Shown here: piece after piece, positions 1 to 64,000 of the stretch
Position numbering within the stretch: the stretch's first letter is position 1
Layout: each line of letters opens with the position of its first letter
Assembly: GCA_041650835.1 (NCBI GenBank)
Contig: JBAZKL010000001.1
Coordinates: forward strand, 701,617 to 765,616
DNA from: Candidatus Omnitrophota bacterium
GTDB lineage: Bacteria > Omnitrophota > Gorgyraeia > Gygaellales > Profunditerraquicolaceae
Length of the DNA stretch: 64,000 nt
Reading direction: 5' to 3'
The notes under the pieces: generated by a model
What the model was told of the DNA's origin: nothing
Databases searched by the model: none
The model's input: only the letters and a program-made list of their open reading frames with translations
Translations under genes and position numbers: made by a program

Positions 1-3000
1 AGAAAAAACAGCACAGAGAAAAGAAAAGTCTTTACCATGGTTAAAACGTTCCCGGGTACGGGAAATCCGGGAAATAACATGGGGATGCTGCAACAAAGCG
101 TCATATACCCGGCGCTCGGACGTTCCCGGACGCAGGGCCCTGTCTCCGGAAGGATCAAGTGCCCGCAGCGTTCTAATGAATAATCGCTCTTTCCGCAATT
201 TATTTTCAGCGTCTTTATCGATACGAAGGCGCAGATGCACGCTCGGCAGCATGGGAAAATCGCTGACAATTTCTTCGGCTGCCTGCGGGGTTAAACTCGG
301 CAGCAGGCTTTTCAGATAAAAACTCCTATAATAATATTTTTCAACCATAGGCCAGCGGGACGGGCTGTCCCATTGTAAAAATGTTTCAAAAGCATCCTTT
401 ATCGCGGGTATCCGGCCAAACTGAAAAAGCGCATGTATTACGCGGCGGCTCTGTTTATCATGGCCTTTTAAAACCTGCCAATTACCGCGCGCCAGCTCTC
501 TCAAGGCCTCCTGATGTTCCATCACTAACTCATCGACGCTATTCAAGCCGTCTTCACAAAGCGCAGGATACAGCATGATCAACCGCTCCAGGGACCCGGG
601 ATCAGACCGATGCGCCATATATACTATCCATGATAAGCCGGCTGCGTCATCTATATTCTGATACAAATGCTGCCGTTGCTCCCTGATACGTTTACGCATG
701 GGGACGGTCCATTTATAGTAGCCCTGGAACACCGGGTCATGCTGTATAAAATTGACCACCGCGTGGCTGCGTTCAATCACCGCGTTATAACAAACCTGCA
801 GTTCGTCAGGCAGCTGAGTGACCGAAAAAGGCGCCTTCGCCCAAAGGCGGGAAAATATTTGTAATTCCGTATTGCGGGCATCCCTAATACGCTCTTTCCC
901 CCAGCCGCGTTTGTTATTAAGGATACAGTATTCGACGCGCGCGCGAAGCCCCGCAAAAACATCAGGCTCAACCGCCCTGATATACCTGAGAAGCCAGCGG
1001 GTGATAAAGAAAGCCGATTTATCGTCCCAAACCGCCCCTACCCCCTGAAAATCCTGCATAGGGCTTAAACGCTGGTGACGCAGGGTTTCTAAATAAGGCC
1101 GGTATACCCGCGGCTTATTTTGAGCCGGAGAGGATGAGCTGCCGATATCGCGATAAATATTCTCTACCTGGCGCCGGAGAAAAGAGCGCATATAGTCATA
1201 CGCGAACCATTCATAGCCGCGGCTATCCGTCGAGGTAAGTGAGCGCACCTTCTGCCGCAGCGCGCCGTCTCCCTGTTCGTCGAAAGCCATAACCCTGATC
1301 CCGTTCACCCCCATTTCTGAAATATGTTGTATCGCGTGAAAACGCAGGCGCTGCAATGCCCGGGAGGCGTCCCCCAGGATCGCCGGGATCGATAAGAACT
1401 CAACTGAAGCGTATCCGCGCAGAGGGCATCCGACAGCATGACGCATCAGTAAAGCGATGAATTCAGGCGCCTGCCAGAACACTTCCTTGAAATATTTCGG
1501 CGAGATATCCTGTTTTCCGATAGTAAGGCAATAATGCACCGGAAGTTTTCGCTCGATCCGGCCTCCCATGATATGCTGAAATTTCCGCGCTATATACAAA
1601 AGTTGAGGTTCATCCTCATCATCATCTACCGCCACGATCAAATTCAAATCGCTCCTGTTTTTCCGGGCCAGCCCCACATACCCCAAACTCCCCATAATAT
1701 ATACCTCATAATCCCGCGTAACCTTTCCAAACGTCTCCTTGCGCAGAAGAAATTCCCGTAAATCCGCCGCCAAGGCATCTTTTTCCCGTCGGGTAAATAC
1801 CGCGGAAAGATCCATTCCCGGGCACTCTTTCAGCAAAGGGATATCCGCGATATCGCTTTTTACCCTCTCAAAGAGGAACTTTTCCATTTGCGCGAAACGC
1901 TCAAGCGGATCTTCAAAGCTGCCCAATCTATCTTCAACCGCGACCCGCGATCCTCCTTTATCGGAAACGCCCTGCCCGCGGTCTTTTTTGTAATACGGCT
2001 CGCCCAAAGAAACGTTCTTTTTTTCTTCCCGCTGCCGGCTGAATTTACCCCTCAGAAAATACTTTCTTACCCCCGATAAAACATAGTCCTCCAGATCGGC
2101 CTCGGAATCAGGCTCATAACCATTGGCGTGAATAATTTCCACTAAAGACAACCTGGCGTCTCCCAGTTCATCTCCCAGGAAGAATTCATCTTCATAGGTC
2201 AACTTCCTCGGCAGAGCGCTTTCGCAGGTGGGAGACCTCACCACCGCAAGGACTTTAGGAAGAAAATACTGAATAAGCTCGTCCCTGGAATGAAGGTCGC
2301 CTCGCGCTGAAGAATTCCAAAGTTCTAAGATAGTATCGGCGTTGCTTTCAGCGTTATTCCCATGAACAGCCTTGGTAAATTGAGCATAAGCGAACCCGCC
2401 TTCCTCCCGTTCTTTTCCGGCGGATTGAGCGTTAATCTTACCCGCGCTCAATGCCAGATCGTACGCCGCCTGGCTGGCATATAAGGCGATCGAACCGCAA
2501 TTCTTAATGAGCGGGGCCGGAAGCAGATGGCCGCACCCATAGACATCGTTTAAGGCGTGGAAAAGCTGCGTGTGCCTGCGAAGGACCGTCTTACGGTTTA
2601 TCTTTTCTTCTTGCGGGAGAGCCGTGTACGCGCTTACCGCTGACTCAAGCGTCGGGAACATCCTGCTGAATTTTTGCGCGCGCGGGACCGCTATCCCGTA
2701 TTCCAAACACGCTCTCACTAAAAATGGCTCGCTTTTAATTAGCTCCGAGAGGATACGCTTCTCCGCGGGAACAGCGCGCAATGAATCATAAGCCCTGCGG
2801 GAATCCGGGAAATAATGCACATAGCCATCATAATCCCCGGAGGCAAGGATATCTTCACAGGACAGATCGAGTGAGCGGGCGGCCGCTCTTCTTGCTTCAT
2901 GTACCGCCGCCATATCAGGACGATGGGCCAATAACGCGTTAACAGAAGCAGTACTGTCTTTAAAGACCGCGTGAAAAAGTTCCTGGCGATTGTCACGCAA

Positions 3001-6000
3001 TAAAGCCAGGTACTGCCCTATCCCTAATCCGTGACGCAAAACGCTCCTTTGCAGCAAAAGACACTGTCCGCCGGACGATAAACAAGCAGCTTGCCCGGCC
3101 ATATCCCGATAAAAACAATAGATTCTCTGCGCTGCTTTCAGCGGATCAAAATACTCAAAGAACTCATAAACACCAAAGGAATCGACCGAATCCAGGAGCG
3201 AAGCTTGCGCCGGGCTCAGATATTGGTTTTTCTTTAAATTAGAAAGCCGGGCAACTCTTTCCGCCGGATCAACAGAAGTATCAAACCAATAATCAACAAC
3301 CTCCCGGGCAACCGGCTCTTCAAAACCTGCCCCCGCGAATGCCTTAATGAGCGCTTCCTTCTTTCTTGCAGGGCCTGACAGGACAAGCTTTTGCCGGGCG
3401 GCAAAATTTTCCCGGTCCCGCTTTATAACATCTACCGCCATGCCTAAACTTATATCGTGGCTATCCGCGACGGAAATAAGCGCCTGACGGCTGAATCCAC
3501 GAGCGATGATCCTGGCAAGGGATGCTTTCTCTATATCAAGCGATTCTAACTGGGATATTTTTTGCTTTATTCTCTCGACATCTTGCTGGCTTAACCTTAA
3601 GCCTTGCACATTAAAATTGCGCGCCGCCTGAACCGTATCGGAAGATAAAATTCCGTTTTCCTGGAGCCGGTCGAGACATAAAATCCAGTACCATTTCATA
3701 TCTTTACCGGAAACGACTTTTGCCAGGGCCTCAATTAACTCAACGCCCAGAGTGACTTTATACCGGGATAATTGCTGCCGGAGGGTTTCGCGCATCCGCT
3801 CACGCAGGAACGCGATCTCCCGTGCCATCATCCGGTTAAAAACCTGCGGATACACCCGCAAAAGCAGTCTTACCCCCGTCAGATCAACCCCCCGCGGATC
3901 GCTCCTTACTTGCCGCACCGTAGGAACATGACAGCCTAATTCTTTAACCCGCCGATTGGCATGGATCAGTTGAAACGGACTCACCAGGGTGCGCGCGGCT
4001 CGATGCGCGATATCTTCATTCAGGCCGCTTTCAATCAACCGGTGGCGCAATATATCCAAAGCGACAGGGTCATAATACGTAAGCCCGCGGCATTCTTGAG
4101 CCGGCGTAACGGCAGTCACTGCTTCTATCGCCGAAGAAGCAGTGCCGCTTTTCATAACTATATGCCGGGAAATAATGCTTTTCTCAGAAACAACTACCCG
4201 GATATTAACGGGCTGTATTAATTTTGTGCCGCCCGGACGAACGAGGGACACGCCTGCGGAGACCTGCGCTATAGGTTTATTATTGAGAAAAACGTATTCC
4301 GGGGAAAATATACTTTTAATTATTTTCAAGAGGCGTATATCGCCGGCGCGGTCCACGCGCAGCTCAAAATAATCTTCGTAAAGCTGCCCTAAATACAAAA
4401 GATACGCCGCGAGGAAAACAAAAACAGTCTCACCGATCCCTCTGCCTCTCATCTCTTGCCCATCATATATCTTTTTGACCGCTATTTCATTTATCAACAA
4501 ATACTTCTCATGCTCTGCGTACGCATTCGCCAGATACCACTTGATATCGCCGATCTTTACAAACGGCTCTTTTAAAAATACCGTTAAACTCGAATCAATA
4601 ACAATTGCCGGGCCGCCTTTCACATTAGCCAGAGCAGTACTTCCTTTTTCTAAAAATGACTCTATTTCTTTAGTCCCGAGCGCTGAAGCGGCGGCTTTTT
4701 GTTTTAAGAATATCTGAGCCCGCTTATAGGGGCCGGCTTCGCCTGGTAAATAAACGATACCGTCATGGCTTATATCATTGCGCTCCCGTTTAAATCCGAC
4801 ACCGATAACCTGTTTTCGAAATTCCCGCTGGTATAATCTGTAATAGAATTCTCCGGCAGGACTATTCTCATCAACATGAAGCGTTATCTGATTAATGCCG
4901 CTCCCTTGCAGGGTGCCGATAAATTCCCGCAACAGGCCGGTTTCCAGGCTCCCCCGGGGATATAACGGCATAGCTGCCATATAATAAAGGTAACCGGGAT
5001 AATCCGCGAATGGCCCTGAAACAAGATACCCGGCAATTTCGTTTTCCAGGATACTCAGATAGATAGTATTGGCAGGATCGGTCGCCACCCGCCAAATAAG
5101 ACCGTTATCTTTCGGGAAAACCGTATAATAAGACGGATTCCTTACTTCCCGGTCAATGCGGGCTATCCCCGCAAGGCTTGCCTCATCAATAGTACCGCCA
5201 TTGATCGCCCTATAAAGAGGCGAACTGCTGGTGCGGGTCGCAACAAAGCAACCTACCGCTTGGTGAGACGAACCTCGAGCCTGCGCCCGGCCGCTGCGCA
5301 TCAATCCGGAATGAGCCACGCATTCGGCATTAAAACGCTCCATCGCGGAATTCAACCAATGTAAACTGCCGCTATCCCTATCGGTAAACTCCTCCGCCAT
5401 GTATTCAAGGCCGCGATTAATATGGCGGTAATAGATATTCTTAACTTCAGACGGGCCGATACCCCTCTCTGAGGCGATCTTTTTTAATTGAAAGGCGTGC
5501 GCCCATTCATGCTTTATTATCCTCACCAGGAGAAACCGTTCCATTACCGCCACAAACAACCACGCGGCTCCGTAGATGATCGCGGCACAATTTGCGGCAT
5601 GGGCCAAGAGAGGCGCATTTACGAAGAAGTAAGAGGCGCAGATACCGCAGGCAAAGAAGAACGCCGCAGCCGGAAGCGTCAACGACCACCCGCCATAACT
5701 AATTGTTATTGAGTTCAGGCGGCCTTCTAAAAAATCAGGGACACAACTGGGGATCCTCACCTGGAGCAATAAAACAAACACACTCAAGATCCGCAGAGAA
5801 AAAGGCATAGACTCCCAACCATCCATAATAAACCGTTTAAACACTTTAAACTGGGACAACGGGGTATATTTTGATTCAAAAACTTCGATATCATTTGGGC
5901 GTATCCCGCGCACATATTTTTTTAGATCGAGGATCATTTGAGCTTCTTGTTTTTTAAGCGGCGAAGAAGCACGAATTTCGCGTTTATTTATCCGTTCGGT

Positions 6001-9000
6001 TAATTTTGACAGTTCCCTTCCGACACTCCCTCCCCGGGGGCGGCTAAAATCGTAAGGCTCACCGAGAGCTGATAAAACAATATTCCAGAGCATCTCATCG
6101 CGTAATCCTCTTACTCCGCCGGATATTTTATAAATAAAGAGCTGTCCTATATCAACAACAGCCCATAATGAAAAACCCCACTGGACAATCCCGCTTAACC
6201 GCAGCCAAAGGGGAAGCGCGGCTCCGGCGATATTTAAGCCGATAAGCAATAATAAAGCGGCACCGAAGAATATGTTAAGAATACGCAGATGAATGAATAT
6301 CCTGACAAAGTTTTCTTTTGCCTGCCAGGACAAATCCCTATAACGGAATATCCTGATAAGCCAGAATAAAGAGGCAGTTGCGCCATAACTGATAATGGCT
6401 ACTGCCGCAGGGAGCAGGGCTGTTTGCCCGGTGAGAGAATACGGCAGCAAAGCTAACCCCGCCAATGCCCAAACAAAAGGGGTCAGAAGCGCGAATACAG
6501 CCCTATTAGATAATATATTCGGCATGCTCCTTTTGAGCATGCTCTTGGAGCCGCCCCTGTTTAACCGAGTTAAAGATACGCCGTATCGGCTCAAAGCCAG
6601 CGGCGAAGAAGATAAAACGCGCCTGCCGATAACCCCCTGCCAGCACTGAAGCTCTTTACCGGGCGCTACGCATTCCGCGCCGAAATATTCTTTTGCCCAA
6701 CGTTCCATCACGGCGTTTCCTTTGGCTATGGAAAACCTGATTTTGTTATTCAGGCGACTGCTTTCAAGGAAAACTACTATTTTCTTGAACGTCTTTGACA
6801 TTAAATATTTTCCTCTCAATCGCGCGGTCACCTCCGGCGTGCGGCCTAAAGAAAGATAGTCAAAATTAACATACCGTTCGAAAACCGCCGCTGAAAAGAC
6901 AAATTCAAAATCATAATTACTTATGCTTCCTTTATTAATTTTATCTAATCGTGATCTTATATAGCGCGCCTTGTCAATTATCACCGCGTATTCAATATTA
7001 TGAGGAAACTCCAGTTTGAGTTCAATAAGGACCAAGGTATCGCCGCAGCCATTCAAATATTCTTCGAGCTTGCCAGCTGACTCGGAAGGTTTTGCGCTTA
7101 ATTTAAATATCCTTAGTTTTTTACCGCCATTAAAACTTTTAAAGGCGGATAACAGGTCGTCTGCCACGAATTCGCTCGATGGCCTTTTTAATAAAGAGGC
7201 AAGTGTAGTAAAGGCTTTTTTGACTGAGCGCGCGGTAAATGCATAGTGCCGGCACGGCATTTCTGTCAGCGGCGAGGCGGCAGTAAAAACACAAGTCATC
7301 TTTGACTCATACGGCTTAAAGCCGTTTTTCTTTTCTAACGGAGAGGACGCTTTTTGCTTCCAGGAGCGATAATCCGCTTTTAATTGCGCGAGGGTTTCCT
7401 CGAAGATATTGATCAGGGCGAGGGTTTCCCCTTTATCCGCCTTCGGCAATGAATTGTATTTTTGTTTAACGCTGACGAGCATTTCTTCAAAGATAGCTAT
7501 CGCGGAGCCATACGCGAACTCTTCGGCAGCACAAACATGCTCTCGGGACTCAAAAGCCCCGGCGATATCATGATCGTATTTCCCCGGATCAGCTTCAAAA
7601 TCATAGACGTGCCCGAAAAGCTCATGCGCCAGCACAGCCGGGAACATATTCTGTTTTTCCTCAAACAAGTCGGTTTGAAAAACAATAAGGTACGTATACG
7701 GTTTGCCGGCCCCAGGGCGCAGCGCGATCGTGATCGAAGGGACGGCTCCCTCGAAATAATACCCGAGAGAAGAAGCCAGCCGCGCCACATTATCAGCCTT
7801 GAAGAAAAGAAGCCTCTCTCCTGAAGCGTACAGAGGCTTCAAAAGCTCTTTACGCTTCTGCGCGGTTTCGCTGAGAGTAAGAAAGCCTAACGTATAGCTT
7901 AAGTACTCATCTTCCATATCGGAAAGGGCCTTAAGCTCTCTCTGGAGCATGCTGCCTCTATCCGGGCTTTTGATAAGATCCTGCGCGAAGAGCTTTCTTA
8001 TATCGCTTAAGAACAGGCTTCCCGCTAAAATCGTTATAAACTGCCTGCGGGTAAACATCGCGGAAGATGCATAGCGGCCGATGGCCCATAGCCTATAATA
8101 GTCCATAGCCTGATCTCTTGAAACCGCTAATAATCCCTTATATTTTCCAACAGGGCTGCTGGACTTTGACCCTCGGGCTTCAAGGCACTCGAAATAGAGC
8201 TGATCGAGGATCAAAGCTTTTCTCTCTCCAAAACGCCCGAGAAAATCCTCATAATCAAAGAATACATATAATTTTACCAGGAATTGATGATCGTCCTTGC
8301 CGATATTCAATAAATAAGAAAGCAGGTAATAAACCTGCTCGAATTCTCCTGTTTTAATAATGCCGCGCAGCAAATCTATTTCCCCCTTATCGGAAACAGG
8401 CTCTATTGCCGTATGCAAAGCGCTCACTATGGAAATCTCTCCTATTCCCAGGTCGATCAAAGTTTCCCGGCTGACCCTATTTCCCAAATAATATCCATAC
8501 GGATACTTGAAATATTCATATAAGGACCCGCTCGGACGGACCGTATCTTTATTCTGGAATTCCACCTGATATATTTCCTGGTGGGGGATCCCCCTATACG
8601 TTATCTTTCCTAAATGCAAACCTATTCTGGTGGCATTCAAGCTAAAGGCATCCTTTAAACTAAGCTTAACGACATAGCTGAGCCTGTAGCGATTCCGTAG
8701 CCCCCCCAGCCGGGACCGCAGCCACTGCTTATATATCGGATCATGCGCCATAGGTAAAGCTATCACGATCTTCTCCTCAAGATTACCTGCCGCGTCAAAC
8801 TGTTCAATGTCCTGGCTGAGCACGATAGCTTTAAACAAATGCCTTATATCTTTACCTATATACCGCACTATCTTCTGCTGTTTAACCTCCCAATATCTTC
8901 CATGCCCATTTGTCAGCTGGTAGCCGAACCGGTAGATCCCCTTATGCTGTTTTAAGAACATAAGCGGCAATATTCCAAACTTCTCTTCTTCTACACCCAA

Positions 9001-12000
9001 AATATTTACCTCTTGAAAAGTAATCGGTGAAGCTGAAGCTAACAGTTTTCTGCTTTCAAGCAGCTTCTCCAGCTCAAGCGAACGCTTTTCATACATCCCC
9101 GTATCTTGATATACTCCCGTCTCAATAATAAAAGCGTTCACGGCAGCGGGAACAAGCCTCCCGACAGATGATCCGTCGCGGACCATCCGACGGATCTTAG
9201 ATGAAGACAGATCAGCGTCTTGTGGATCGGGAATAAATTGCAGAGTAAGGATCTTATCTTTTTCTCTAACTAATCCTTGATATTCAAGCGTATCTTCGAT
9301 CCGGGCCCCCTGCCTGTCCATGACCACAAAATCGTTTTCTTCCAATAATCGCCCGAAATCGCCCGCGAGCGTTGATTGCATTGAATCCTTGCCGACAATA
9401 AAGTAAATTTTGATTTCCCGGGAATACTGCTGCCGGTAATACGCTTTTAAAGCTACAGACATTTCCTGATACCAGCCGGTGTTGACTAAAAACAATTTAT
9501 CGATCCCCGGCTTACCTTCTGCCTTATATTCATCAAAAACTGCCTTTACCGTGAGGATCCTATCCTCAAGCGACATGCCGGAGACCTCTTTTTCAAAGTG
9601 CCTGGTCCCGATTAAGAGTATTGTTTCATCCAAGCTTCCTCCTCCCGGCAAGCGTATATCTTTGGCTACTTCACTCAAGAACTCGTGAGCGTTATGCAGG
9701 CAGTTGGCGGTCGGGACAATAACGCCTATTTTAACCGGAAGGGCTTTTTGCGTTGTTTCCCGGTATTGCGTTACCAGGACAGCCGCAGGCGTCTGCCGTG
9801 AATTTACCTCAATGATCTTCTTCCGAGTGAGCTCATATTCTTCCAGGCAGTTCCGGGGAGACCATCTTCCCACCGACTCTATATCTGCGAAGAACTCCTG
9901 CCAATCCTGATCATCCAACACTTTGGCAGCCATTATCAAATTCTCAAAAAAGCGCCTTTCTCTTTCATCCTGTTCAAGGCGTTCAATGGTATTCCACCGC
10001 ACCAGCCAGGTAAATTGCTGAATGAACTTTAACCGCAGCATCTGCGGGATAGCCCGGATCTCCTGCCTGTTTAAAGGATACCCTAACTTCTCCGCTGCTT
10101 TCTGATACAAGATCACCCAATTCTTTAGTTCATCCATATTAAATTCAGCGCCTGCCTTTTGCAGGTCGTAGAAAAGGCTGCGGATCAAATCGTAAACCCT
10201 TGCTTCCGGCCTGGCAATTTCCCAGTCAAGCACCTTACTGATACGCGCACCCAGCATGGTCACGTTTTCCGCGCGGAAATCACCATGGATCACTGCGCGC
10301 GGCAGGCGGGCATATACCCCGGCCAAATGGCGTATCGCAAGGGCTATCTGCTCTTTGAAGAAAGGCTGATGCTCTATAAAAAGCCGCTCCCCGAAGCTCC
10401 TCCCGGCAGGATCTTTCGCGGTAAGGCGCTCGTACGCTTCGTCTAATTTCAACAGACGGTCATCGATTCCCGCGAATTTGATCACGGGATCGGTGATCCT
10501 TTCCCCGCGTAAATGCACCACGCGCGCATCCATGGTAGAGGCATGCAGCCAGGCAAGAAATCCTGCCAGGTCTTTAAGCATTTCAGCGGTCAATTCTTCA
10601 TACGCGTAAATCCTTCCCAAAGAGTCAAACCGATAGACGGTAAAAATGGCGTCGGCTTCAACATAGGCGGCATTGCCTTCTTCCGTATATATAATCTCAG
10701 GGAATCGGGCGTCTCTTAAATTATTAAAAAGTTCCGGCTCCCACAAAGTGCCTTTTAAGTCCCAAACTGATTTTTTAATAACCACCCTGCCTTTATTACG
10801 CGTATCCAGGATCGCGACTTTATTATTCAATCCCTGGAAATCAAGCGAATCGCTTTCGATTTCCAGCCCATAGGCCGCGGCGATCCGCCTGAGCTCATGC
10901 GCGGTGATCTGTACGGATTTATCGCGATGCACAAAAGATTCACGCTGCTCCCAGAGGCTATCGAGAGCGAAAGAGAGCTGCTCTATCACGTGGGTAGGAA
11001 GAAGCCCTCTTTTTCTTTTTTGTTCTCTTACTACCATATCCGCCGCCAACCCATGGACATACACCCCCAATACCGCCGCTTCACGGGGAGTGAGGCCTTG
11101 AGCGATAAGTCCGGCAATAACGCCGGTAAGGACGTCCCCCATCCCGGCTTTTGCCATATATTTATTTCCGGTAGAATTACTATAGACGCTTCCATTCGGA
11201 CAGGCGATAAGAGTACGTTCGTTCTCATCCCCCTTGAGCACGACCACCGTTCCATACGCGGAAGCAAATTCCCTGGAGATATCCGCGCGGCGGGATTGTA
11301 TTTCTTCAAGAGGGATACCGCTTACGCGTGCCATTTCAACAATATGCGGAGTAATGACCGTCCTGCCCCAGGCATTACGCAGGATTGAAGCCTTACCCGC
11401 CAAAGCATTAAGTGCGCCGGCATCCAGGACTAAAGGAATCCGTGTATTTCTTAATAACCGATACATGACCTCATGCGCCTGATCTTGTTTTACGATAAGC
11501 CCGGGGCCTATTGCTAAAGCGCCTATTTTATTCTGAGAGATCTCCCGCAAGAGCCCTTCTGCCGACAGCAGGTCAAACGAATGATCTTTTTGGTGCGGCA
11601 ACGCGCAGGCCATAACCTCATCCGCCGACTTAGCGTAAAACATGCTGTAGAGATATTTCAAGACACCTGCATATACCATACCAGTGCCGCTCTGCAACGC
11701 TGCTTTTGACGCCAACTGCAGCGCGCCCAAATATTTCCCTATCGAACCTCCGGCAATCAATACTCTCCCTCGGCTGCCTTTATGGTCATTGGATCTTACT
11801 TCCGGCACCAAAAATGCCGCGTCCTGTTCATCAATGGCCTGGATTTTGCGGTTTTTATCTAAGCTTGCCTCAATAAACAATACTATTCTCGGAAAATCGA
11901 CATTTTCCGAAACAATCTCAATATCTTCTGACCATAACTTTAACTGCCTCTCCGGAGTAAAATTATCCACACTCACCGTAAATCCAAGCCCAGAAAGCAC

Positions 12001-51000: not shown

Positions 51001-54000
51001 GCGTTTTCCGAACGACTGGATATGGCAGGTAAAAGCCATATCAAAGATCCCATCTTCTAAATTAATTCTGTAAATTATATCCTCATTGCCATTTTTACCA
51101 AAATGACTGTTTAAATAACTGTTCAGGGTTTCGTAACTCAACCAGGGATCACGGGAATTACCCGCAGCGTTAATCTTATTCGGCGAAGATGATTGTAAAC
51201 TATTATTTATAACATAATCGAAAGTTACGTCATTCTCTTCATATCTAAACCGCATAAACTCATCAGGGCTTATATTTTTTATACGCTTGTTTCGAGTTGT
51301 ATTCCGACGCCATTCTAGATAAAAAAGCCTTGAATCATTATCCGCAACGACTCTAATTATTACAACATTGTCGTGGAGGCCCCTATAGAGAGAGCAATCT
51401 AACCCGGCAAGGATCACGAAATCGATGCTCCCGGCCTTAAGAGCCTTATTAATGTTTGATTCCAGCTTCATGGCATCTATGCCGACCCCATACCTGCAAT
51501 ACCTGTCTCTTTCTATGCGGCGGATGGAATGCAGCCGGTAAAGATCATAAATCAGTTTTGCGACATAGCTCTTACCAACTCCGGAGTCGCCTTCTATAAT
51601 CAACAACAGTTTTCCTCTTTGTAATGCGGCATCAATAACTTTCTTAACCGCTTCCAGCGCCTTAGCTTGATGCGGTAATTTCTTAAAAGGGGGCAATCTA
51701 TGAATAATCGGCGATGATCCATGATTAACCCCTATCCTGCCTCTCCAGAGCATCGAGTTATCGACTTGACCGGCGCGAAAATATTTCTTGAGCCAGTGAA
51801 ATATCGCCTCGCTGCTGCTGCAGATGGTCCTTGCCTCAAACACCCATCCCGGGTATTCCTTTTCCAGGAAAGAAGCGGCATTCTTAAAGGTAAGCGACAT
51901 TAACCCTTTGCCCCTGAGGCTATCGATCACAAGATCAGACCGGCCGAGTGAAATATCATGCAGGTATATGAGCTTTTTACCGGAAAACGCGCTTACCTCC
52001 AGGACAAATTCATAGTCTTCTATATCAATTTCGCAGCGTAATATTTTGTTGAGCCCGAATTTTATGCGCCACATTCTGTCAATAACAGCGGCGTAATAAA
52101 CCCCGTTTTCCGAGCGTCGTATAAACAGGACAGCTGCAAATTCTTTTAAGCGTCCGGCAAGCATAAGATCTAAGAACCATCTCCAACTGAATATTTGCTT
52201 TGCCTGCTTACGCACGTCTTTATCTGTGCCCTGAAAAACGAAAGTAAGTACCGGCTTATCATCTATCTCCCGGAACGCGCTTAATAGATCCTTCGCCAGG
52301 AAAACTTGCGCGCGCACCAACTCATTTTCCCCCTCTCCCCTCTCGCTCTTGGAGAGCGCCAGCGGCGAGGCGGCTGGTAAAGATGAAGATACTCTCACGC
52401 TTCCCCGGGAAAACCCCGTCACGGCGGCAGCGCGCACAAAATCGGCGAACGATCCTTCCGCATGGGCCGGTATTTTTATTTCCTGTTTAAGGAAGAAATC
52501 GTGGTACGCTCCCGCCAGCGTGCGGATATGATGATTTGCCTCATCCAAGGCAAGCGCGCGCGCGAAATACCGCAAGAACTCCTCCTCCTGCATACGCATA
52601 AGATACAGCTCAGCCAGGGCGATGTGCCATACGGGATTGAATGGCTGATACTGCAAGGTATCCTCGATAAACCACTCTTTCATCTCCCCTATTTCCACAT
52701 TCGCCGATTCCATCGAACCTATGACGGAAAGAAGCAGGTGCCTTTGCGCAATATTCGCGGGGTCATCTCTTAAATCCTGCAAGACGATTTGACTGAACTG
52801 CCGTAATTCCAAAGCGTCCATCTCTGAAATTTTCCCTTGCTGTTTAAGGATATGCTCCCACTGCATCCCGGCAGAAAGACGATGTTCCTTGAGGTATCCC
52901 CGGTAGTCGATAAAACTATAGAATCCAAGTTGATACATCTCTTCGCGTATTGCGACCACCGACTGCAAAGCGTCCCGCCCACCCGTAACCACAAGATCAT
53001 CAATGAGCGCGATACAACAACCCATCTCCGAGCCACACGCGTGCCCATACCTTTGCCTCAATGAGTCGATGACACGGTAAAGATACGTTGAGATCAGCTC
53101 ATCAGCCAGTATTTCAAGGACATCTTCTCTATAGATGCCTTTTTGCCGGATATCCATATCATTCAACCGATGCACAAACTTTTCCACTTCAGTATCCGCT
53201 ATCGGCAAAAGTTGACGCACTCCGTCGTAGGCAAGCATAGACCCATAACGCTGATCGACGCGCGCCCGATCAGCGACTCTATATCCGAATTCGTTTATTT
53301 CTTTTGTTGATATATCCTTCAAGAAAAGGCCGCGATCATTGGCAAAGGCATAATTGGTATAGCGGCTGCCGGGAGAAATGAACACTCCCGGTGTACGGTT
53401 CGACGAATAATTAAAAGGCAGAAGGTAAAAAAGGAGCAGCGATTCCACGAACTTAGGCATAAGCGAATCGGGAGTGGATAAAATAATATTATAGGATGGA
53501 TAGAGCCCTTCATTCATCAAGACGCGGTGCTTCTTCAAGATACCGTCTATATCCTTGTAGCCTTTATCCATAAGGAACGGTTGGCTATTCTCGTCAAGGC
53601 CAAAGCCTATGTGATAGAACCCGTTTTTCACCACTCTCCCTGTAAAATCCTTTAAGGCCGCGGGATCATCGGGCAGAGTATTTAAATGTGTCTGTTCAAT
53701 GGCGAAACTAAAGTACCTGCCGAGATCGTACTGTTCGATGAATGAGATGACCGCTTCGGCGTGCGCCCGGGAAAGAAGAAAATTTTCGTCCCAGAATCTT
53801 ACGGTGATCCTGCGCGCTTTAAGTGCCTCCAGTTGAGGCGATTCTCTCCTTGACCGCAAAGATTCGGCCAATGATGCTAACGAAATCAGAGGGGGGCCCA
53901 CAGGAAGATGATTACGAAGCATACCAAGAATGCGTTCTTGTAAATGGCTTACTTCGCAAAGCGTGACGCTCCTGCTCCCCCCAAACATCAGGGACGCGTT

Positions 54001-57000
54001 GCATATCTTGCATGCACGGTTGCACCCGTAAGACGTTACGATATTGTAATTACGCGCGCTTTGCTCATTGGCAGGAGCGGTCTCTACCGGAGGAATAAGA
54101 ACCTTGCGGTACTCAGCGGGAGTAACAAAATCATTGCATATGAGGCGATCGTGCAGGCGCAGTAAACTCGCTTCAGGGAATTTCCCGTGCGTTCCCCGCA
54201 AGAAACTGATCAAACAGGGCAAAGTTTCCACCCCCGCGCCGGAAAGCAACGCTAAACGCGGATACTCGTTGATAAAAGGCAGCAGCTTTAAAAGCCCCCT
54301 GGTGACCGTAGGGCCTCCTAATACAATAACAGAAGAGATACCCAGCGTTTTAATTTCCCGTATAAGAGCATTCAATTCTTCTAAGTTATAATCATGGAAA
54401 GAACATCCTACGACATCGTAACCGTGTTCTGCGATATTCTCAGCAACCGCGCGCATACTCTCAGAGGAATTCATCCGCGCCTCCGAGGCAAATCCGTGCT
54501 CACGGAGGCTTTCTTTCAGTATCCTGCAGGCGTAATATGCGGGTTTATTGAAAGCATATAAAAGAATTCCCGGTTCACTAGGCAACATTTCTGATGAAGG
54601 CATGCGCAGCTGCCTATCCGGCATAAGCCCGCTTTCCATGATCAAAGCAAGAGCCGCATTATCAACCGACATGCCGCTCAATCGAAATACCCTGTTCTGA
54701 TGGTCGAAAACTTGCCCGGAGGATATCGATGCGCCTAAAGAATATTCTTCTCCGGCCTTTGCGCGCCCCAGCTTTTGGACGAGATCGATCTTTTCCTGCA
54801 AACGGCTGATTTCAAGACGGAAATCATGTTTTGAAGCTTTCAGCAGCGAGAGAGCTTTTTTAAAACTGAACAAACGCTCGTATATTTCCACCAGTGAAGC
54901 TATCGTATGGTAATCTTCAGGGTCTTGAGCCAGAATGATCTCCAGGCTGGCAAGAGACCTATCCAAAGTATCTACCGGCGAACCTGCCACGTTATTACGC
55001 TCCAATGCCTTCAGCACGTTTTCATTAAGCCTCCACTTCACATAAAAACGGAATGGATCCTTACCGGAAAGTACCTGCTCGACTGTATCGACGAACAAAC
55101 AATAGCTTCTGCGCAAGCCATCTTTTCTTGCCCCGGCAAGAAATTCTTTCGGGTCAATCGTTTTTAAGTTATGGGAACCTTTCGAAATCGGCGAGGCGAG
55201 GGAATTTTTAACAGCTCCGAACGCAAATGAAAAAAGCCAAACCTGGTATCCATGAATATCAATTCCTGAAACATAGATAAAGTCCGCCTCACTGCAACCG
55301 CTAAAATTGGCCTTCCCGGCCAAATTCAATAGTTTCGCCTGACTTCTTACATGCGCCAATTCATAACCGCCAAATATAAGCAAACGGCATTTCGGCCAAT
55401 TCCCGGCCGCACCGATGACCCACTCATGCAAGGCTCCGTAAGTCGGGCCGATATTGCCGGCTACAGCGTCAATCGTGGCAGTGATTTCCTGCGGCAGCCC
55501 CAGGGTCTGTTTATCGTCGCGCCCTATTTCACGCTGAATGAATTCCACTTTTCCCTGCCAGGAATAACCGTTAACGCTCAAAATTTCTTTTGCCCTCTCA
55601 AGCGCGTTATATGACCTTTCTACCGCATAAACAAACTTCGCTCCCAACCGAAGCGCGACAAGGCTTAAAATGCCATATCCCGCTCCGATATCGGCTACAA
55701 CTTTGTCAGTCCAGTCATGCCCAAGCATGAGCGCGATAATCGGAACGGTAAAACCATTGATAAACGGATTGCTTTTTGTTCCTTTCCTGATTGGGATCGC
55801 GGATTGCCCGGCTTGGCCCCACTGCGGGTCATTCTCGGGGTAAAAAATAATTCCCTCTCCCCCTTCCTGCAATAATTCTTCCCCTAATAAATCTTTCAAC
55901 CGTTGCAGATGCTTAAGCGAGCGATATTTTAAGAAAGTCAACGCCCCTAACTGAACAAAGGTGCCCTCCCTATCCCATTCGATAGACACATGCGCGCTCT
56001 CCGCATTCGACGGGATCACCAATAAGGCATGCAATTCATCGTTTCCGGCAAATTTTAAGAATACAAACGGAGCAAGCTGTACAGATTTTTCTCCCGCGCC
56101 CAACACCGGTTTATTGATTTCCGCGCGGGTATCCACAATCGATACTATCCCCGCGCTTATTTCTTTAATACCGAGCCTCTCCTTAACAGCTTTCCCGGTC
56201 GCCCGCGGTTCTTGAGATTCAACGGAAACGGTTTTATTTTCCGGTCCAAGAGGAGAGGCACTTTCTTTCTCTCGGGATTTCGCGGCAGCAGCAAGAGCCT
56301 CTTCCGCTTTCCCCCGTATTTGTTCATGACAAAATTCATTCTGCCTGGCCCTTTCTAAAAGGAGAAGAGCATTTTGGCTTTTCCGTTGGGTGGCGGAAAT
56401 AACCGCGCATGCTAACATCTTCCAATACTTTATCGCGGCCTGTTTTATTTTATGAGAAAGCCCGGGGACAACCAGTATTTGCTCTTCCACGTACTTCATT
56501 ACAAAAGGGTCTCCGCCAGCGGCCCGGGCCGCAAGCTTCTGCATCGTATATTCCCTCTCTGAAGTATCATGCCAGTAATAATCCTCTTTCCCATCAAAAT
56601 ACGCCAGGAAATGCGGAGTGATCTGAAGCTGATTTTTCTCTGATATAATGGCGGCCAGCGCCAGATACGCGGTTGCCACCCGGAATTCTCGTTTACCTTC
56701 TCCGGTCACTCTATCTATGAAAGCCTTGAGCCTCTTCTCTAACGCCGCGAGCGACGCAGTATTACCGTATCCGGCCGCATATATCAACAAGCTGATACTC
56801 TTATCTAACGTTGAATCGTATACAAAATACTTCCGGGGCGATTCGTCGTCTATAAACCGCTCAAGCATTTCCACTATTCTTTGATCACCCAGGCTCAATA
56901 AAACATACAGCGCGCTCCTGGCGCTATCTCCTAAACACAGTTTATCCTCAACAGATAATGAAAAGAGTTCAGGGATAAGACGGCTCAGAGTGCCTACGGC

Positions 57001-60000: not shown

Positions 60001-63000
60001 AGGGACGTAACCTATAGACTCATAAAGCGCCTCACAAGAATCATAGTTTAAATCCGGCCCGCTTATGACGTGAGCAGAAATACCTTCCTCTATACTTAAC
60101 GCCTTAAAGGCTTTCACAAAATCTCTCCAGTCAGCATTATCACTGCCATAGTAAGGCATTACCTTCTTTAAATGTATTTCACTCATCAATTGAATAAAAG
60201 CCCCTACAGGGGAGGCAGCGCTGAGATCATCCGTTGCGCGCCGGCCAAAGAAACTCATTTGATCGTTTCGCGGAGGGGAAAAAGAATTGTAAATATTAAA
60301 GTTACTGAGCACTTGCTTCAATAAAGATGAGTTATTACCTGGCCCAAAGACTAAATACGCCAGAGGTGATGTAGCGCGTTTTCGTATGGAAATATCTTTC
60401 AAAGGTATATTCCTTAAATCATAGACAAAATCGTCAAAAGGCGCATTGAACGGTTCAAAACCATCTGCCAGATAAAAACCCTCTCCGGCCTTGCCTTCTA
60501 TAACATAAAGACTATCCTTGCCCAAAACATCCCGCGCAAATACTTTTGCCAGCGATGACAACGCTTTACCTATCCCCCTATATTCGTAGCGCAACCGGTT
60601 TTTAAATGCATGGATAGCAAAGTCAGCCTGTACCAAAGGTATCGTGCGTTCATCAAAAGAAAGGTCTCTCCAACGGTTATATGCCTGGACGTAGATATGC
60701 CCGAAATAAGCGCTCCTATCGGCGTGCCTGAACATAAAACCGAACTGCGCGGATGCTCCATCTTCAGCATTAATTTTTCTTACCCCCTGAGGATAGATCA
60801 GGCTGAATATCAACCTTTCTGCCTCTTCAGTAACCAGGACAACTTCACCGCTTTTCTGTTTCAGCGCAGCTGCTAAAACAGCTTGGGGGCGAGCAGGAGA
60901 AGCAAAATGGCTTACTCCTCGTATTCGATCAGCTACCGGTGAGGCCGAACGCAATGATCCCCCTGAAACAGCCGCAAACGCTTCATTCCATCCCGCGTGG
61001 CTCCGGAGCCAGGAATATTCTTCACCGGGCACGCCTGCTTCTCGCATCGCCTCAAGGATGCCGACCTTAGAACCGAACATGAGCGATCTCACTATATCGA
61101 TCCTGCGGTATCGTTTTACCGGGCGGACTTCTGCTATGTCCCGCGGATTGCCGTTGACAACTTCCATCTTCTCTCCCGCGCTGACCATTAACATAGGCAG
61201 CTTCTCGATATCGAAGAAAAGTATTACGGGCTTGGGATTCCTGATCGCGCCTATAAGCTTCTTATATACTTCAAATTCAGGGGCGGAAAAAATCGCGTCA
61301 TTGTTCTCACAGGCGACATCGCTCCAATAATAGTTTTCAGTGGTCTCAACAAGCGTAAACAAGACGCGGTCGCGCCGGCGCGGGTTGAACAACTGCCCCT
61401 TATTACAACGCAGCGCGTAATCAATAAGGCTGGTTGTCGTGCCCCGGCACAATCCGTATTCAAATATTTCATTGAGAAAATCCCCGAAGCACAACTGTCC
61501 TTGAGAAATGATATTCTTACGGACCCACACAACCTGATCGAGCAGGCAGACCTCAAAGGCCTCGTGTATCCTGTCGATGTTCGCTAAGAGGAACGCCAGG
61601 CACTTCATTTTTCCCTGATGATGCAGACGCTTTGCCTGGTCAACGATCAGGCTCAGGTCGCGATCAGGGATATCAGTCATCTTGTCGACCGGCAATTGCT
61701 TTTCTATACGGGAAAGGTGGCCCTTGATAAAGCTGCCGTATGTTTGTTTTTCCGGCCCCACATCGAGTACGCAAGGATATATTTTATCCCGTAAACCACG
61801 CGGTATTTGACACAGGCATCTTTCTAATTCGCGGACAAGGCCCCTTCTATTAATTGGTGAGTTGCCACGCGGTTTACGGGCGACCCAGGCGGCGCAATTA
61901 TAAAAATTAACTTCCCGCTCGACATGAAAACCATATTTTTGCTCAATAAGGTCCATATGAGCGCACATAGCCCTGTATTTATCCTCCTCATCGGTCTTAT
62001 ATCCGGAGGCGATGAACAGGCGCGCCTCAGGGAAATAGGGAATAAGCTTCATGCTGTCGGCATTCGTTACCGAATACATCCCCCAGGAACCTATATTTGA
62101 AACAAGGGCGGTTTCCCGGTCCATTTGACGGGGCGAAAGAGACCTTGCGATCCCCTCGGGATCTTTCAAGTCGCCGTTAAGTAAACGGTAAGCGATACCC
62201 TCCTTAAAATCATTGATCTTCATTTGCAGCCGCGCGACTTCCAGCAAAGTACTATCGATCTCAATTGCATCAACGCTGCAATTTAAGCGAAGGGCCGTTA
62301 AGGACAATTCCGCGCGGCCGGCCCCGCAATCAATTACATGCATATCTCTAACGCTATGGAGCATGGCAAAAAGCGCCAGAGACGTATATGTGGGAAAATA
62401 ATAAAACATCTTATGAGCGCTGATATTTACCAATCGCATGGAATTAGTTTTCAACAAAACCCTCAGATCAGAGCCCAGGAATCCAGAATAAATACGCTCG
62501 TCAATGAATATCAAATTATCAAACCTGATAAATCCTGAATAATAATCCGTGCCGCCTGTTTCCTTGACCATTACCCATTCTCTTTCATAAGCATATGGCC
62601 CGAATTGAAAAGTTTTAAGGGTCCGATAGATATCAAAACCCAGTCTTTCAAGCTTCAGATTGATCTCACCGGCAAGCTCCTTACTATAATCCCGGGATAA
62701 TCTGAACGGCGAGGCCGACATTTGAGGCAACCGCCATTCCTTCTTATCAAATATGACTTTGATCGGTTTTGCCATGCCGTTTTCCAACTCATGAATTGCA
62801 GACTCATAGATAGCCGCCATTAACTTAATACCGATACTATGGTCGCTTACCGGCGATATCGACCTTTCATTGATAGGCCTTACATCAGAAGATCCCGGGG
62901 TTGTTAAAATCCTCAGGAATTCTCTCATCGGCGCGCCGTCATCTTCATCACTGACCGGAATATTTTCAACCGGAGAAAATTCTTGCAGCATCCCTTTATT

Positions 63001-64000: not shown

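Follow-up and report, generated by a model that had tools for sequence, protein, structure and literature searches.

The stretch of DNA analyzed here (the window) covers 64,000 nucleotides, positions 701,617 to 765,616 of contig JBAZKL010000001.1 (assembly GCA_041650835.1), from a Candidatus Omnitrophota bacterium. Its minus strand is filled by the interior of a giant open reading frame (ORF), whose predicted product is a string of units joined by a conserved, directional five-residue peptide that we call the separator. The features are collected in Table 1, where residues are counted from the 5' end of the ORF within the window.

A coding frame that runs through the whole window

A six-frame scan found no TAA, TAG, or TGA in the 21,333 codons of the minus-strand frame at plus-strand positions 3k+1 to 3k+3. 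The remaining five frames contained 746, 766, 1,182, 1,667, and 1,200 stops, with all three types of stop codon abundant and a longest open stretch of 615 nt. Given the mean stop density of these frames (∼5.2% per codon), the calculated chance of an open frame of 21,333 codons is below 10^-400. Coding periodicity is evident in the frame (33.7% G at codon position 1 and GC contents of 0.54, 0.38, and 0.50 at the three positions), and the amino acid (aa) composition is ordinary and globular. The original prediction, made from the letters and a list of ORFs, had placed the whole window inside one ORF truncated at both ends, with both window ends in the same frame, had held that such a frame cannot be noncoding, and had proposed the six-frame scan as a check; all of this was borne out, and no in-frame stop came to light. 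It had also pointed out that the ORF list holds no long ORF and nothing in the giant frame. Indeed, the list contains 18 ORFs of at least 100 aa, the longest of 163 aa, and the giant frame is absent because the lister omits ORFs running off both ends. The predicted protein, of at least 21,333 aa, exceeds the 10,000-aa class threshold of giant proteins, and both ends of the gene lie outside the window.

Two relatives of the giant gene came from a scan in which each GTDB species was represented by one genome. L001 lies on a 543-kb contig (JBAZTA010000002.1) of a Candidatus Omnitrophota metagenome-assembled genome (MAG) and shares blocks of 48 to 78% aa identity with the window (75% as an overall figure). 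L002 is a 20.4-kb contig (CAZPNW010000152.1) from a bin labeled uncultured Planctomycetales, with blocks of 80 to 87% aa identity. The homologous frame was uninterrupted over the 28,376 nt of L001 examined and over all 20,434 nt of L002. The ratio of nonsynonymous to synonymous substitution rates (dN/dS, Nei-Gojobori method) between the window and these relatives was 0.08 to 0.24 in 11 of 12 aligned blocks, domain-free blocks included; dS was saturated in the twelfth. All three giant genes are mosaics in which well-conserved blocks alternate with stretches that are unrelated to, or absent from, the other genome. Together, the open frame, the existence of relatives, and the dN/dS values exclude, for practical purposes, a chimera, noncoding DNA, and a decayed pseudogene.

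A further relative, P0003/L003 (Ga0105098_10001660 of JGI metagenome 3300009081), is 71% identical to aa 19,770 to 21,333 of the window and bears on the alternative that the frame is an artifact or a row of many genes, produced by chimeric assembly, recoded stops, or internal initiation. The L003 frame of 7,971 nt has two in-frame TAG codons (nt 130 to 132 and 7252 to 7254), has no TAA or TGA and is otherwise open, and was split into three genes by the gene caller, as this alternative would have it. The first TAG is located 5 aa past a separator. However, the second replaces a conserved GAG (Glu-21157 of the window) within a highly conserved stretch and thus resembles a point variant or an error; the two TAGs could be nonsense variants, sequencing errors, or sites of TAG read-through. 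In the window itself, no recoding is required, since the frame lacks all three stop codons, which are plentiful in the other frames. Moreover, the same open frame occurs in four independent assemblies, and related giant genes terminate at normal stops with normal genes after them. As for internal initiation, only 9 in-frame ATGs have a Shine-Dalgarno-like sequence upstream, none of them within 15 aa of a junction, and the first Met after the separators is not enriched. An artifact or a row of genes is therefore very improbable and already largely refuted.

At the DNA level, Tandem Repeats Finder (TRF) reported one 27-nt item and no other tandem repeat in the window, and an Rfam scan of the window matched no RNA family. 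The GC content falls to 0.425 to 0.436 at positions 14001 to 18000, compared with ∼0.50 elsewhere. Across the separator-delimited units, GC at third codon positions varies from 0.41 to 0.57, which fits a differing age or origin of the units.

Domain content, topology, and known classes of giant proteins

Domains recognizable in searches of Pfam, NCBIfam, and PDB sequences cover ∼11% of the residues. The original prediction had described the translation as a chain of recognizable enzyme and regulatory domains; bona fide domains are present, but the description holds for this fraction only. The domains belong to ∼15 distinct Pfam families with 1 or 2 copies each, methyltransferase folds reach ∼5 copies, and no family dominates. 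Between aa 5,001 and 10,000 there was no PDB or NCBIfam match, and Pfam recognized only the end of the ThiG-like domain in the first ∼40 residues.

Table 1. Features of the giant frame in the window
Feature	Position (nt)	Strand	Residues (aa)	Remarks
Interior of giant ORF	1..63999	-		21,333 codons, no start or stop within window; stop scan, periodicity, dN/dS
GFO/IDH/MocA Rossmann piece, weak		-	58-92	Domain searches
S-adenosylmethionine (SAM) methyltransferase, PrmA/CpaM-like	62185..62430	-	524-605	NCBIfam NF011529 4.6e-10; weak Pfam PrmA
SAM methyltransferase, PrmA/PRMT-like	55408..55749	-	2751-2864	Pfam PrmA 8e-11; PDB arginine methyltransferases 6e-6
B12-binding-like piece	54301..54525	-	3159-3233	PF02310 3e-6, 27 bits, below Pfam cutoff of 32
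219-aa unit	51706..52374	-	3876-4094	Exactly from separator AASPL to GSSPI
ThiG-like thiazole synthase domain	48871..49422	-	4860-5043	PF05690 2.3e-15
Dark module, copy 1	34162..37728	-	8758-9946	Bounded by separators SSSAV and SSSPV
Dark module, copy 2	30505..34161	-	9947-11165	Ends in SGSPL; 32-36% identical to copy 1
Two histidine-kinase-type regions with HATPase_c	27883..29547	-	11485-12039	PF02518 3e-26, two stretches; NCBIfam kinase models; PDB SrrB, WalK
CheR-type methyltransferase	23134..23688	-	13438-13622	PF01739 6e-14; PDB 1af7
CoaB, phosphopantothenate-cysteine ligase	22333..23043	-	13653-13889	PF04127 3.5e-77; preceded by SSSSL
Degenerate second CoaB copy	21880-22203	-	13933-14040	
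CPBP/Rce1-type intramembrane protease unit	20593..21267	-	14245-14469	PF02517 7e-15; several hydrophobic helices
PIG-L-like piece, weak	19015-19143	-	14953-14995	PF02585 6.5e-4
GT2 glycosyltransferase domain	17440..17712	-	15430-15520	PF00535 3e-5
Five-domain NAD unit	9022..13443	-	16853-18326	Between separators SSSPM and SASPI
NAD unit, domain 1: NadD		-	16862-17064	
NAD unit, domain 2: SAM methyltransferase		-	17107-17255	
NAD unit, domain 3: NAD(P)HX dehydratase (Nnr)		-	17383-17676	
NAD unit, domain 4: APH/homoserine-kinase-like		-	17758-18001	
NAD unit, domain 5: second NadD-like nucleotidyltransferase		-	18126-18271	
Cluster of ∼5 hydrophobic transmembrane (TM)-like segments	5542..6501	-	19167-19486	Kyte-Doolittle
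Dark module, partial copy 3	1120..2448	-	20518-20960	Ends in SSSSPA
Separator SASPL	56248..56262	-	2580	Window/L001 homology stops here in both genomes
Separator SSSPM (example)	13429..13443	-	16853-16857	Translation verified
Separator AASAL	4678..4692	-	19770	71% block with P0003/L003 starts here in both proteins
Separators (34 strict + 5 relaxed = 39), first residues			428, 1018, 1261, 1513, 1525, 2580, 3876, 4094, 4564, 4582, 4745, 5507, 5591, 5968, 6610, 7161, 8033, 8251, 8517, 8758, 9947, 12267, 12707, 14245, 14466, 16185, 16220, 16835, 16853, 18322, 18613, 18644, 18884, 18907, 19130, 19344, 19591, 19770, 19954	First base of the separator starting at residue s = 63,988 - 3s
Further separator variants			712, 11161, 13667, 20954	GNSPI, SGSPL, SSSSL, and SSSSPA, respectively

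Several enzymes keep their signature residues. CoaB matches E. coli CoaB (1u7u) at 2e-45, with the TAGPxREP...SSGKxG region and the first Lys of KxKK kept and an Asn where the crystallized N210D mutant carries Asp. The CoaBC profile TIGR00521 was matched only over positions 163 to 391 of 392, i.e., without the CoaC half. The NAD(P)HX dehydratase retains HKGxxGxVLI, TPHxxEMAR, and AKxGxGDVLTG, and the CPBP unit, whose domain spans aa 14290 to 14386 between the separators ASSAL and SSSAL, retains the catalytic motifs EExxxR, FxxxH, and HxxxN. The ThiG-like domain sits within a unit that starts at the separator AASPL (aa 4745), and the block is 78 to 84% identical in L001 and L002.

Self-BLAST showed that the protein is nonrepetitive save for a family-specific dark module of ∼1,190 aa present in 2.5 copies of 28 to 36% identity. 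Despite an identity of only ∼30%, each of the three copies terminates in a separator. A permissive Pfam scan of the copies gave no match, and when 1.84 billion representative proteins were searched exhaustively with a hidden Markov model, 102 contained the module, many of these with lengths of 2,000 to 7,000 aa. An AlphaFold 2 model of its second half reached a predicted local distance difference test score (pLDDT) of 72 overall and above 90 in the core, with low confidence in the last ∼45 residues before the separator. The best Foldseek hits to this model had an E value of ∼0.01, none at or below 0.001, and were mostly nucleotidyltransferases of the Pol-beta superfamily. The module also carries a GSxG...SDxN signature and may, tentatively, adopt a nucleotidyltransferase fold. 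L001 lacks the second half of copy 1 (window aa 9417 to 9955, compared with L001 aa ∼9095 to 9105), which looks like an in-frame recombination between tandem copies; the breakpoint on the L001 side is not at a separator, so not every insertion or deletion is separator-bounded.

Relatives were found among GTDB genomes and in a 50%-identity representative library. A word-indexed collection of 5.8 billion proteins gave no match for the N-terminal 1,200 aa or for the CPBP unit, and fragments of giant ORFs seem to be underrepresented there. Scans of metagenome contigs with a degenerate dark-module profile and with aa 15,001 to 20,000 found no relatives.

TM-like segments, defined by a Kyte-Doolittle mean of at least 1.8 over 19 residues, number ∼10 in the window and form two clusters, one near the CPBP unit (aa ∼14,080 to 14,350) and one at aa 19,167 to 19,486; ∼14,000 consecutive residues hold at most one. 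Chemistry that depends on ATP, CTP, SAM, or NAD(P) is cytoplasmic. Because nearly all of the recognizable enzymes need these cofactors and the hydrophobic helices are few and clustered, we infer that the stretch faces the cytoplasm and is tethered to the membrane; the N terminus of the protein, with any signal peptide, lies outside the window. This topology matches the TM-only architecture with membrane-anchored cytoplasmic domains published for 46% of Omnitrophota long proteins. An alternative is that the window encodes a segment of an extracellular surface protein that attacks prey by adhesion and cell wall digestion, as proposed for the Archaeovorins. Such a role is the published hypothesis for Omnitrophota giants, many of which carry a signal peptide as well as TM helices, and it would accommodate the GT2 domain, the PIG-L-like deacetylase, and the membrane protease. 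However, we found no adhesin, lectin, dockerin, glycoside hydrolase, or beta-helix repeat in the window, and both the cofactor dependence of the enzymes and the long stretch nearly devoid of TM-like segments make a surface location unlikely.

The original prediction had set the protein apart from repetitive adhesin or immunoglobulin (Ig)-type giants, a distinction that the self-BLAST result upholds; unlike adhesin, RTX, or Ig-like giants, the window has no Ig, cadherin, TSP3, or dockerin repeats by Pfam, self-BLAST, and TRF. It had also called genes of this size extremely rare and stated that giants are not known to be built mainly from metabolic-enzyme domains. The novelty so implied does not hold: giant ORFs of more than 20 kb are found in most Omnitrophota genomes (PMC10066038), and the second statement is outdated. 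West-Roberts et al. (2023) reported ORFs that reach 85,804 aa and named a class, Archaeovorin, whose members contain glycosyltransferases, methyltransferases, peptidases, and NUDIX domains and for which cleavage into smaller polypeptides has been hypothesized; according to these authors, who cite Kizina et al. (2022), its type sequence is a 39,678-aa protein of Velamenicoccus archaeovorus. Nielsen and Lui (2026; bioRxiv 10.64898/2026.06.07.730766) surveyed 916 proteins of at least 10 kAA (thousand aa), the longest of 147,155 aa, and defined as class 1 multi-enzyme metabolic clusters with methyltransferase, HATPase_c, GNAT, and HAD modules. The multi-enzyme giants of Omnitrophota have been reported mostly from the class Gorgyraeia. 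Giant size and enzyme content are thus not new, the class having been documented between 2022 and 2026.

The window resembles the class of Nielsen and Lui in exceeding 10 kAA, in its many Pfam families with none dominating (methyltransferase, HATPase_c, kinase, and nucleotidyltransferase families among them), in its low TM density, in being mostly Pfam-dark and poorly conserved, and in having an Omnitrophota MAG as the closest genome relative. In contrast, its CoaB, NadD, Nnr, and ThiG domains are not among the families listed there. Like the Archaeovorins, it is part of a giant, putatively membrane-associated ORF that carries glycosyltransferase, methyltransferase, and peptidase domains, but Pfam found no SecA-DEAD, C39 or S8 peptidase, glycoside hydrolase, or NUDIX domain in its 21,333 residues (the gene ends lie beyond the window), and extracellular digestion of prey fits poorly with its cytoplasmic-type enzymes. 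Nonribosomal peptide synthetase (NRPS) and polyketide synthase (PKS) megasynthases, AROM, CAD, and fatty acid synthase (FAS) are likewise very long multi-enzyme polypeptides. Unlike NRPS and PKS, however, the window has no condensation, adenylation, carrier, ketosynthase, or acyltransferase domains and no assembly-line repetition, and compared with all of these systems its enzymes come from unrelated pathways and its length is an order of magnitude greater.

Separators mark the ends of autonomous units

The separator, [S/A][S/A]-S-[P/A]-[L/V/I/M], was first noticed as a recurring SSP string in the translation. We defined a strict site as [AS][AS]S[PA][LIVMF] and a relaxed site as one with G or T at the first position. 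The window holds 34 strict sites (20 with Pro and 14 with Ala), compared with ∼1.2 expected from shuffled sequences; the corresponding figures are 17 and 0.45 for L001 and 15 and 0.36 for L002. The enrichment depends on the exact order and identity of the residues. The Pro form with the central Ser replaced by A, T, or G did not occur in the window, and the reversed motif was found 0 times in the Pro form and 2 times in the Ala form (0.9 expected). Pooled over the 102 dark-module proteins, the control with A or T as the central residue gave 19 sites for 21 expected, and SP[LIVMF] without preceding small residues was not enriched (12 sites for 12.6 expected). In a logo pooled from 111 nonredundant sites in nine proteins, information was confined to the five motif positions: S/A, S/A, S, then P (82) or A (29), then L (46), V (38), I (20), M (5), or F (2). 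The flanks carry no information and are not of low complexity. We therefore rejected the idea that the separators are a by-product of Ser/Ala-rich linkers.

The separators coincide with the places where homology begins and ends. Among the 24 ends of homology blocks, 12 are no more than 16 aa away from an [AS]SP site, compared with 1.4 expected (P < 1e-4; none of 10,000 randomizations reached 12). At such junctions, both genomes have the motif, and beyond it the two sequences are unrelated. At aa 2580, for instance, the window reads ...SREKE-SASPL-GPENK and L001 reads ...FQERK-SSSPV-SLKEP, and at a junction with L002 ...VNH-GSSPI-IHRLPP faces ...NNN-GSSPL-AIEAKT. The Pro and Ala variants interchange at orthologous junctions (SASAI/SSSPL, SSSAL/SSSPL, and ASSAV/GSSPL). 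P0003 provides an independent replicate, its block starting at a distance of 0 from the motif. Moreover, none of the 39 separators falls inside a recognized domain (∼4.4 expected), and the segments between separators have a median length of ∼290 aa.

Individual units behave in the same way. The 219-aa unit is 80% identical in L002, where it has different neighbors, and its paralogue at aa 18907 to 19134 likewise spans from separator to separator. AlphaFold 2 modeling of this unit from two sequences gave a pLDDT of 47 and was judged unusable. The native N terminus of NadD lies ∼3 aa past the separator Pro (SSSSP followed by MIKAM), with position 3 of the NCBIfam profile at aa 16862. Because the NAD-unit domains are fused without a separator, units can be multidomain. 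Together, these results show that the polypeptide is a string of at least ∼35 autonomous units, some of them multidomain and up to ∼2,300 aa long, that a conserved, directional separator of five residues links one unit to the next, and that related genomes have gained, lost, duplicated, or swapped units at these separators.

The SSSP-type motif occurs mainly in some of the 102 dark-module proteins. P0007 (7,051 aa, with FBPase and metallophosphatase domains), which reaches its own stop codon, has 19 strict sites and 22 SSSP strings; P0033, a complete 6,528-aa gene with ordinary genes after it, has 17 and 18, respectively; and P0001, P0002, P0003, and P0031 have 3 to 4 strict sites each. Other members carry different recurring peptides. 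[S/T/A]GARL[A/S] occurs 20 times in P0044/L006 (complete, 4,971 aa, with PALP, glucosamine-6-P isomerase-like, and HAD domains). RSELR[A/S/T] occurs 16 times in P0083/L007 (complete, 6,247 aa), with synonymous codons scrambled, including CGN/AGR and TCN/AGY switches. (S)RFAE occurs 5 times in P0050 and SSSS[L/I/A] 5 times in P0002. These alternative separators have unrelated flanks and protein-sized spacing. In P0044, the PALP domain (1592 to 1925) occupies a single segment between two SGARLA sites (1555 to 1933), and HAD motif I (IILFDLDNVL) starts 6 aa past another. These data suggest lineage-specific separator codes. DGG[ND] in P0004, GLAN in P0015, GKVV in P0025, and EEGI in P0014 were rejected as separators: they lie inside repeated domains and have similar flanks.

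Possible processing and alternative roles of the separators

As a whole, the window is best explained as 64 kb from within a single, genuine giant gene of the nonrepetitive, multi-enzyme Omnitrophota type, built of units and separators (probability of about 0.8). What the separators do is a more tentative matter. They may be the sites that an endoprotease recognizes in order to cut the giant product into unit-sized proteins, which would make the product a bacterial polyprotein, a possibility that we rate at somewhat less than even. The ORF would be translated as one chain and then cut at the separators into proteins of ordinary size, the cut falling after the Pro or Ala of the separator and before the hydrophobic residue. 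Processing is suggested because the separators are short, strict, directional, context-free, and placed at unit ends, because their sequences are lineage-specific, as in viral polyproteins, and because native-like N termini come after them. Post-proline-cleaving endopeptidases (EC 3.4.21.26) cleave after Pro and, to a lesser extent, after Ala, which the Pro/Ala-plus-aliphatic pattern of the separators matches. The polyproteins of picorna-, poty-, flavi-, and nidoviruses also consist of a long ORF with many units and short lineage-specific motifs in unrelated flanks, and the window shares with this class its short conserved sites at unit boundaries. Unlike theirs, the gene is cellular, 10 to 100 times longer, and rich in metabolic and regulatory enzymes; its cleavage is putative, whereas viral polyproteins have a cognate protease. 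In a broader form, which we find a shade less probable, a subset of giant and large multi-enzyme genes of bacteria (at least 6.5 to more than 21 kAA) would be true cellular polyproteins, each ORF encoding dozens of ordinary enzymes, with lineage-specific cleavage codes of 5 to 6 residues, a coevolving protease, and shuffling of units.

Several observations weigh against the explanation of the window as a whole, processing included. No protease could be tied to the separator motif. The CPBP unit was considered as a dedicated protease acting in cis, but it has no homologue in P0033, which is complete, or in P0007, and no S9, S8, or C39 domain is present in the window. Half of the block ends (12 of 24) are not near a separator, most of these showing look-alike variants, and the five fused domains of the NAD unit show that not every domain boundary is marked. 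The cytoplasmic, membrane-tethered topology was deduced from cofactor needs and a crude hydropathy scan only. The nearest relative, L002 (87%), bears the Planctomycetales label, and the closest genome-resolved relative, L001, is an Omnitrophota MAG; this label may reflect misbinning of a contig that holds only the giant ORF and no marker genes, which are also absent from the window. Finally, codon usage at the motif is biased. The central Ser is encoded by TCG in 32 of 80 cases (∼9.7 expected) with AGY nearly absent, and the Pro and Ala are mostly CCG and GCG. This bias, reproduced in the window, L001, and L002 despite their different GC contents, suggests a shared ancestry of the junctions or an effect at the DNA or mRNA level, for example, pausing.

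The codon bias also speaks for a DNA-level explanation, in which the separators are mainly scars or targets of the cassette insertion or recombination that builds giant genes in frame and have no role in the protein. In keeping with it, breakpoints of unit gain and loss fall at the motif, most SGARLA sites are encoded by a single set of codons (TCC GGC GCG CGG CTG GCG), and a 13-nt direct repeat overlaps one separator. However, codons differ among the separator sites, which indicates that selection acts mainly on the peptide: synonymous codons vary at most sites and are fully scrambled at the RSELR sites, the P/A and L/V/I substitutions preserve the peptide class, and the motif is kept between paralogues that are ∼30% identical. 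A mainly DNA-level role is improbable but compatible with processing, as short conserved junctions would also favor in-frame recombination. The 13-nt repeat, GCCTCATCCGCGC in two perfect copies at 21255 to 21281 (minus strand), overlaps the separator ASSAL at aa 14245; the first of the copies lies in a different phase and translates as SPHPR, and it is odd to find at a junction a duplication whose length is not divisible by three. We also considered whether the residue after the Pro or Ala is a fossil start codon and rejected this, as its codon is mostly GTT, CTG, or CTT, with ATG or TTG in 4 of 34 cases and GTG in none.

The separators could, instead, belong to a single uncleaved, membrane-tethered metabolon scaffold and act as hinges, docking sites, or sites of modification, such as Ser-Pro phosphorylation or O-glycosylation. 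The invariant Ser of the separator is modifiable, and the ORF itself also encodes an APH-like kinase, a GT2 domain, and several protein-type methyltransferases. The failure to link a protease to the motif agrees with this explanation, as does the detection by proteomics of peptides from the giant ORF of V. archaeovorus with no processing reported. In contrast, related proteins use SGARLA or RSELR, which lack Ser-Pro, pointing to a generic separator role with lineage-specific recognition; the native-like N termini of NadD and HAD come directly after separators; and a plain hinge needs no strict, directional five-residue sequence. We regard an uncleaved scaffold as rather doubtful and give some preference to processing.

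Published work has left unsettled whether giant proteins act as one chain or are cut, and the lack of cleavage points has blocked their analysis unit by unit; that work makes no mention of a separator motif. The survey of Nielsen and Lui mentions neither a separator motif nor cleavage nor linkers and does not describe unit-wise mosaic evolution, and none of the papers in the library searched combined Omnitrophota with polyprotein. The separator code and unit-wise mosaic evolution seem not to have been described before. With the separators, the question of whether giant proteins are cut, and where, becomes directly testable. They provide a rule for dividing giant ORFs, so that structure and function can be predicted unit by unit, and precise peptides for proteomics searches, and the co-occurrence of separator types offers a handle for identifying the responsible enzyme. 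If the proposed processing is true, it would directly answer whether and where Omnitrophota giants are processed, and polyprotein genes would represent an operon-like organization of genes on the level of proteins, not previously described for bacteria.

In the SGARLA lineage, a 688-aa gene with a weak match to Reprolysin_3, a zinc metalloprotease family, lies directly downstream of P0044 (L006 nt 20013 to 22079), and its product is a candidate processing protease for that lineage. The embedded CoaB, NadD, Nnr, and ThiG domains, which belong to cofactor salvage and repair, are relevant to the way in which Omnitrophota with a reduced metabolism encode their housekeeping functions. They also bear on the contamination that genome-quality tools report for such genomes, as the CoaB pair, the two NadD copies, Nnr, and ThiG within the giant ORF may inflate estimates based on single-copy markers.

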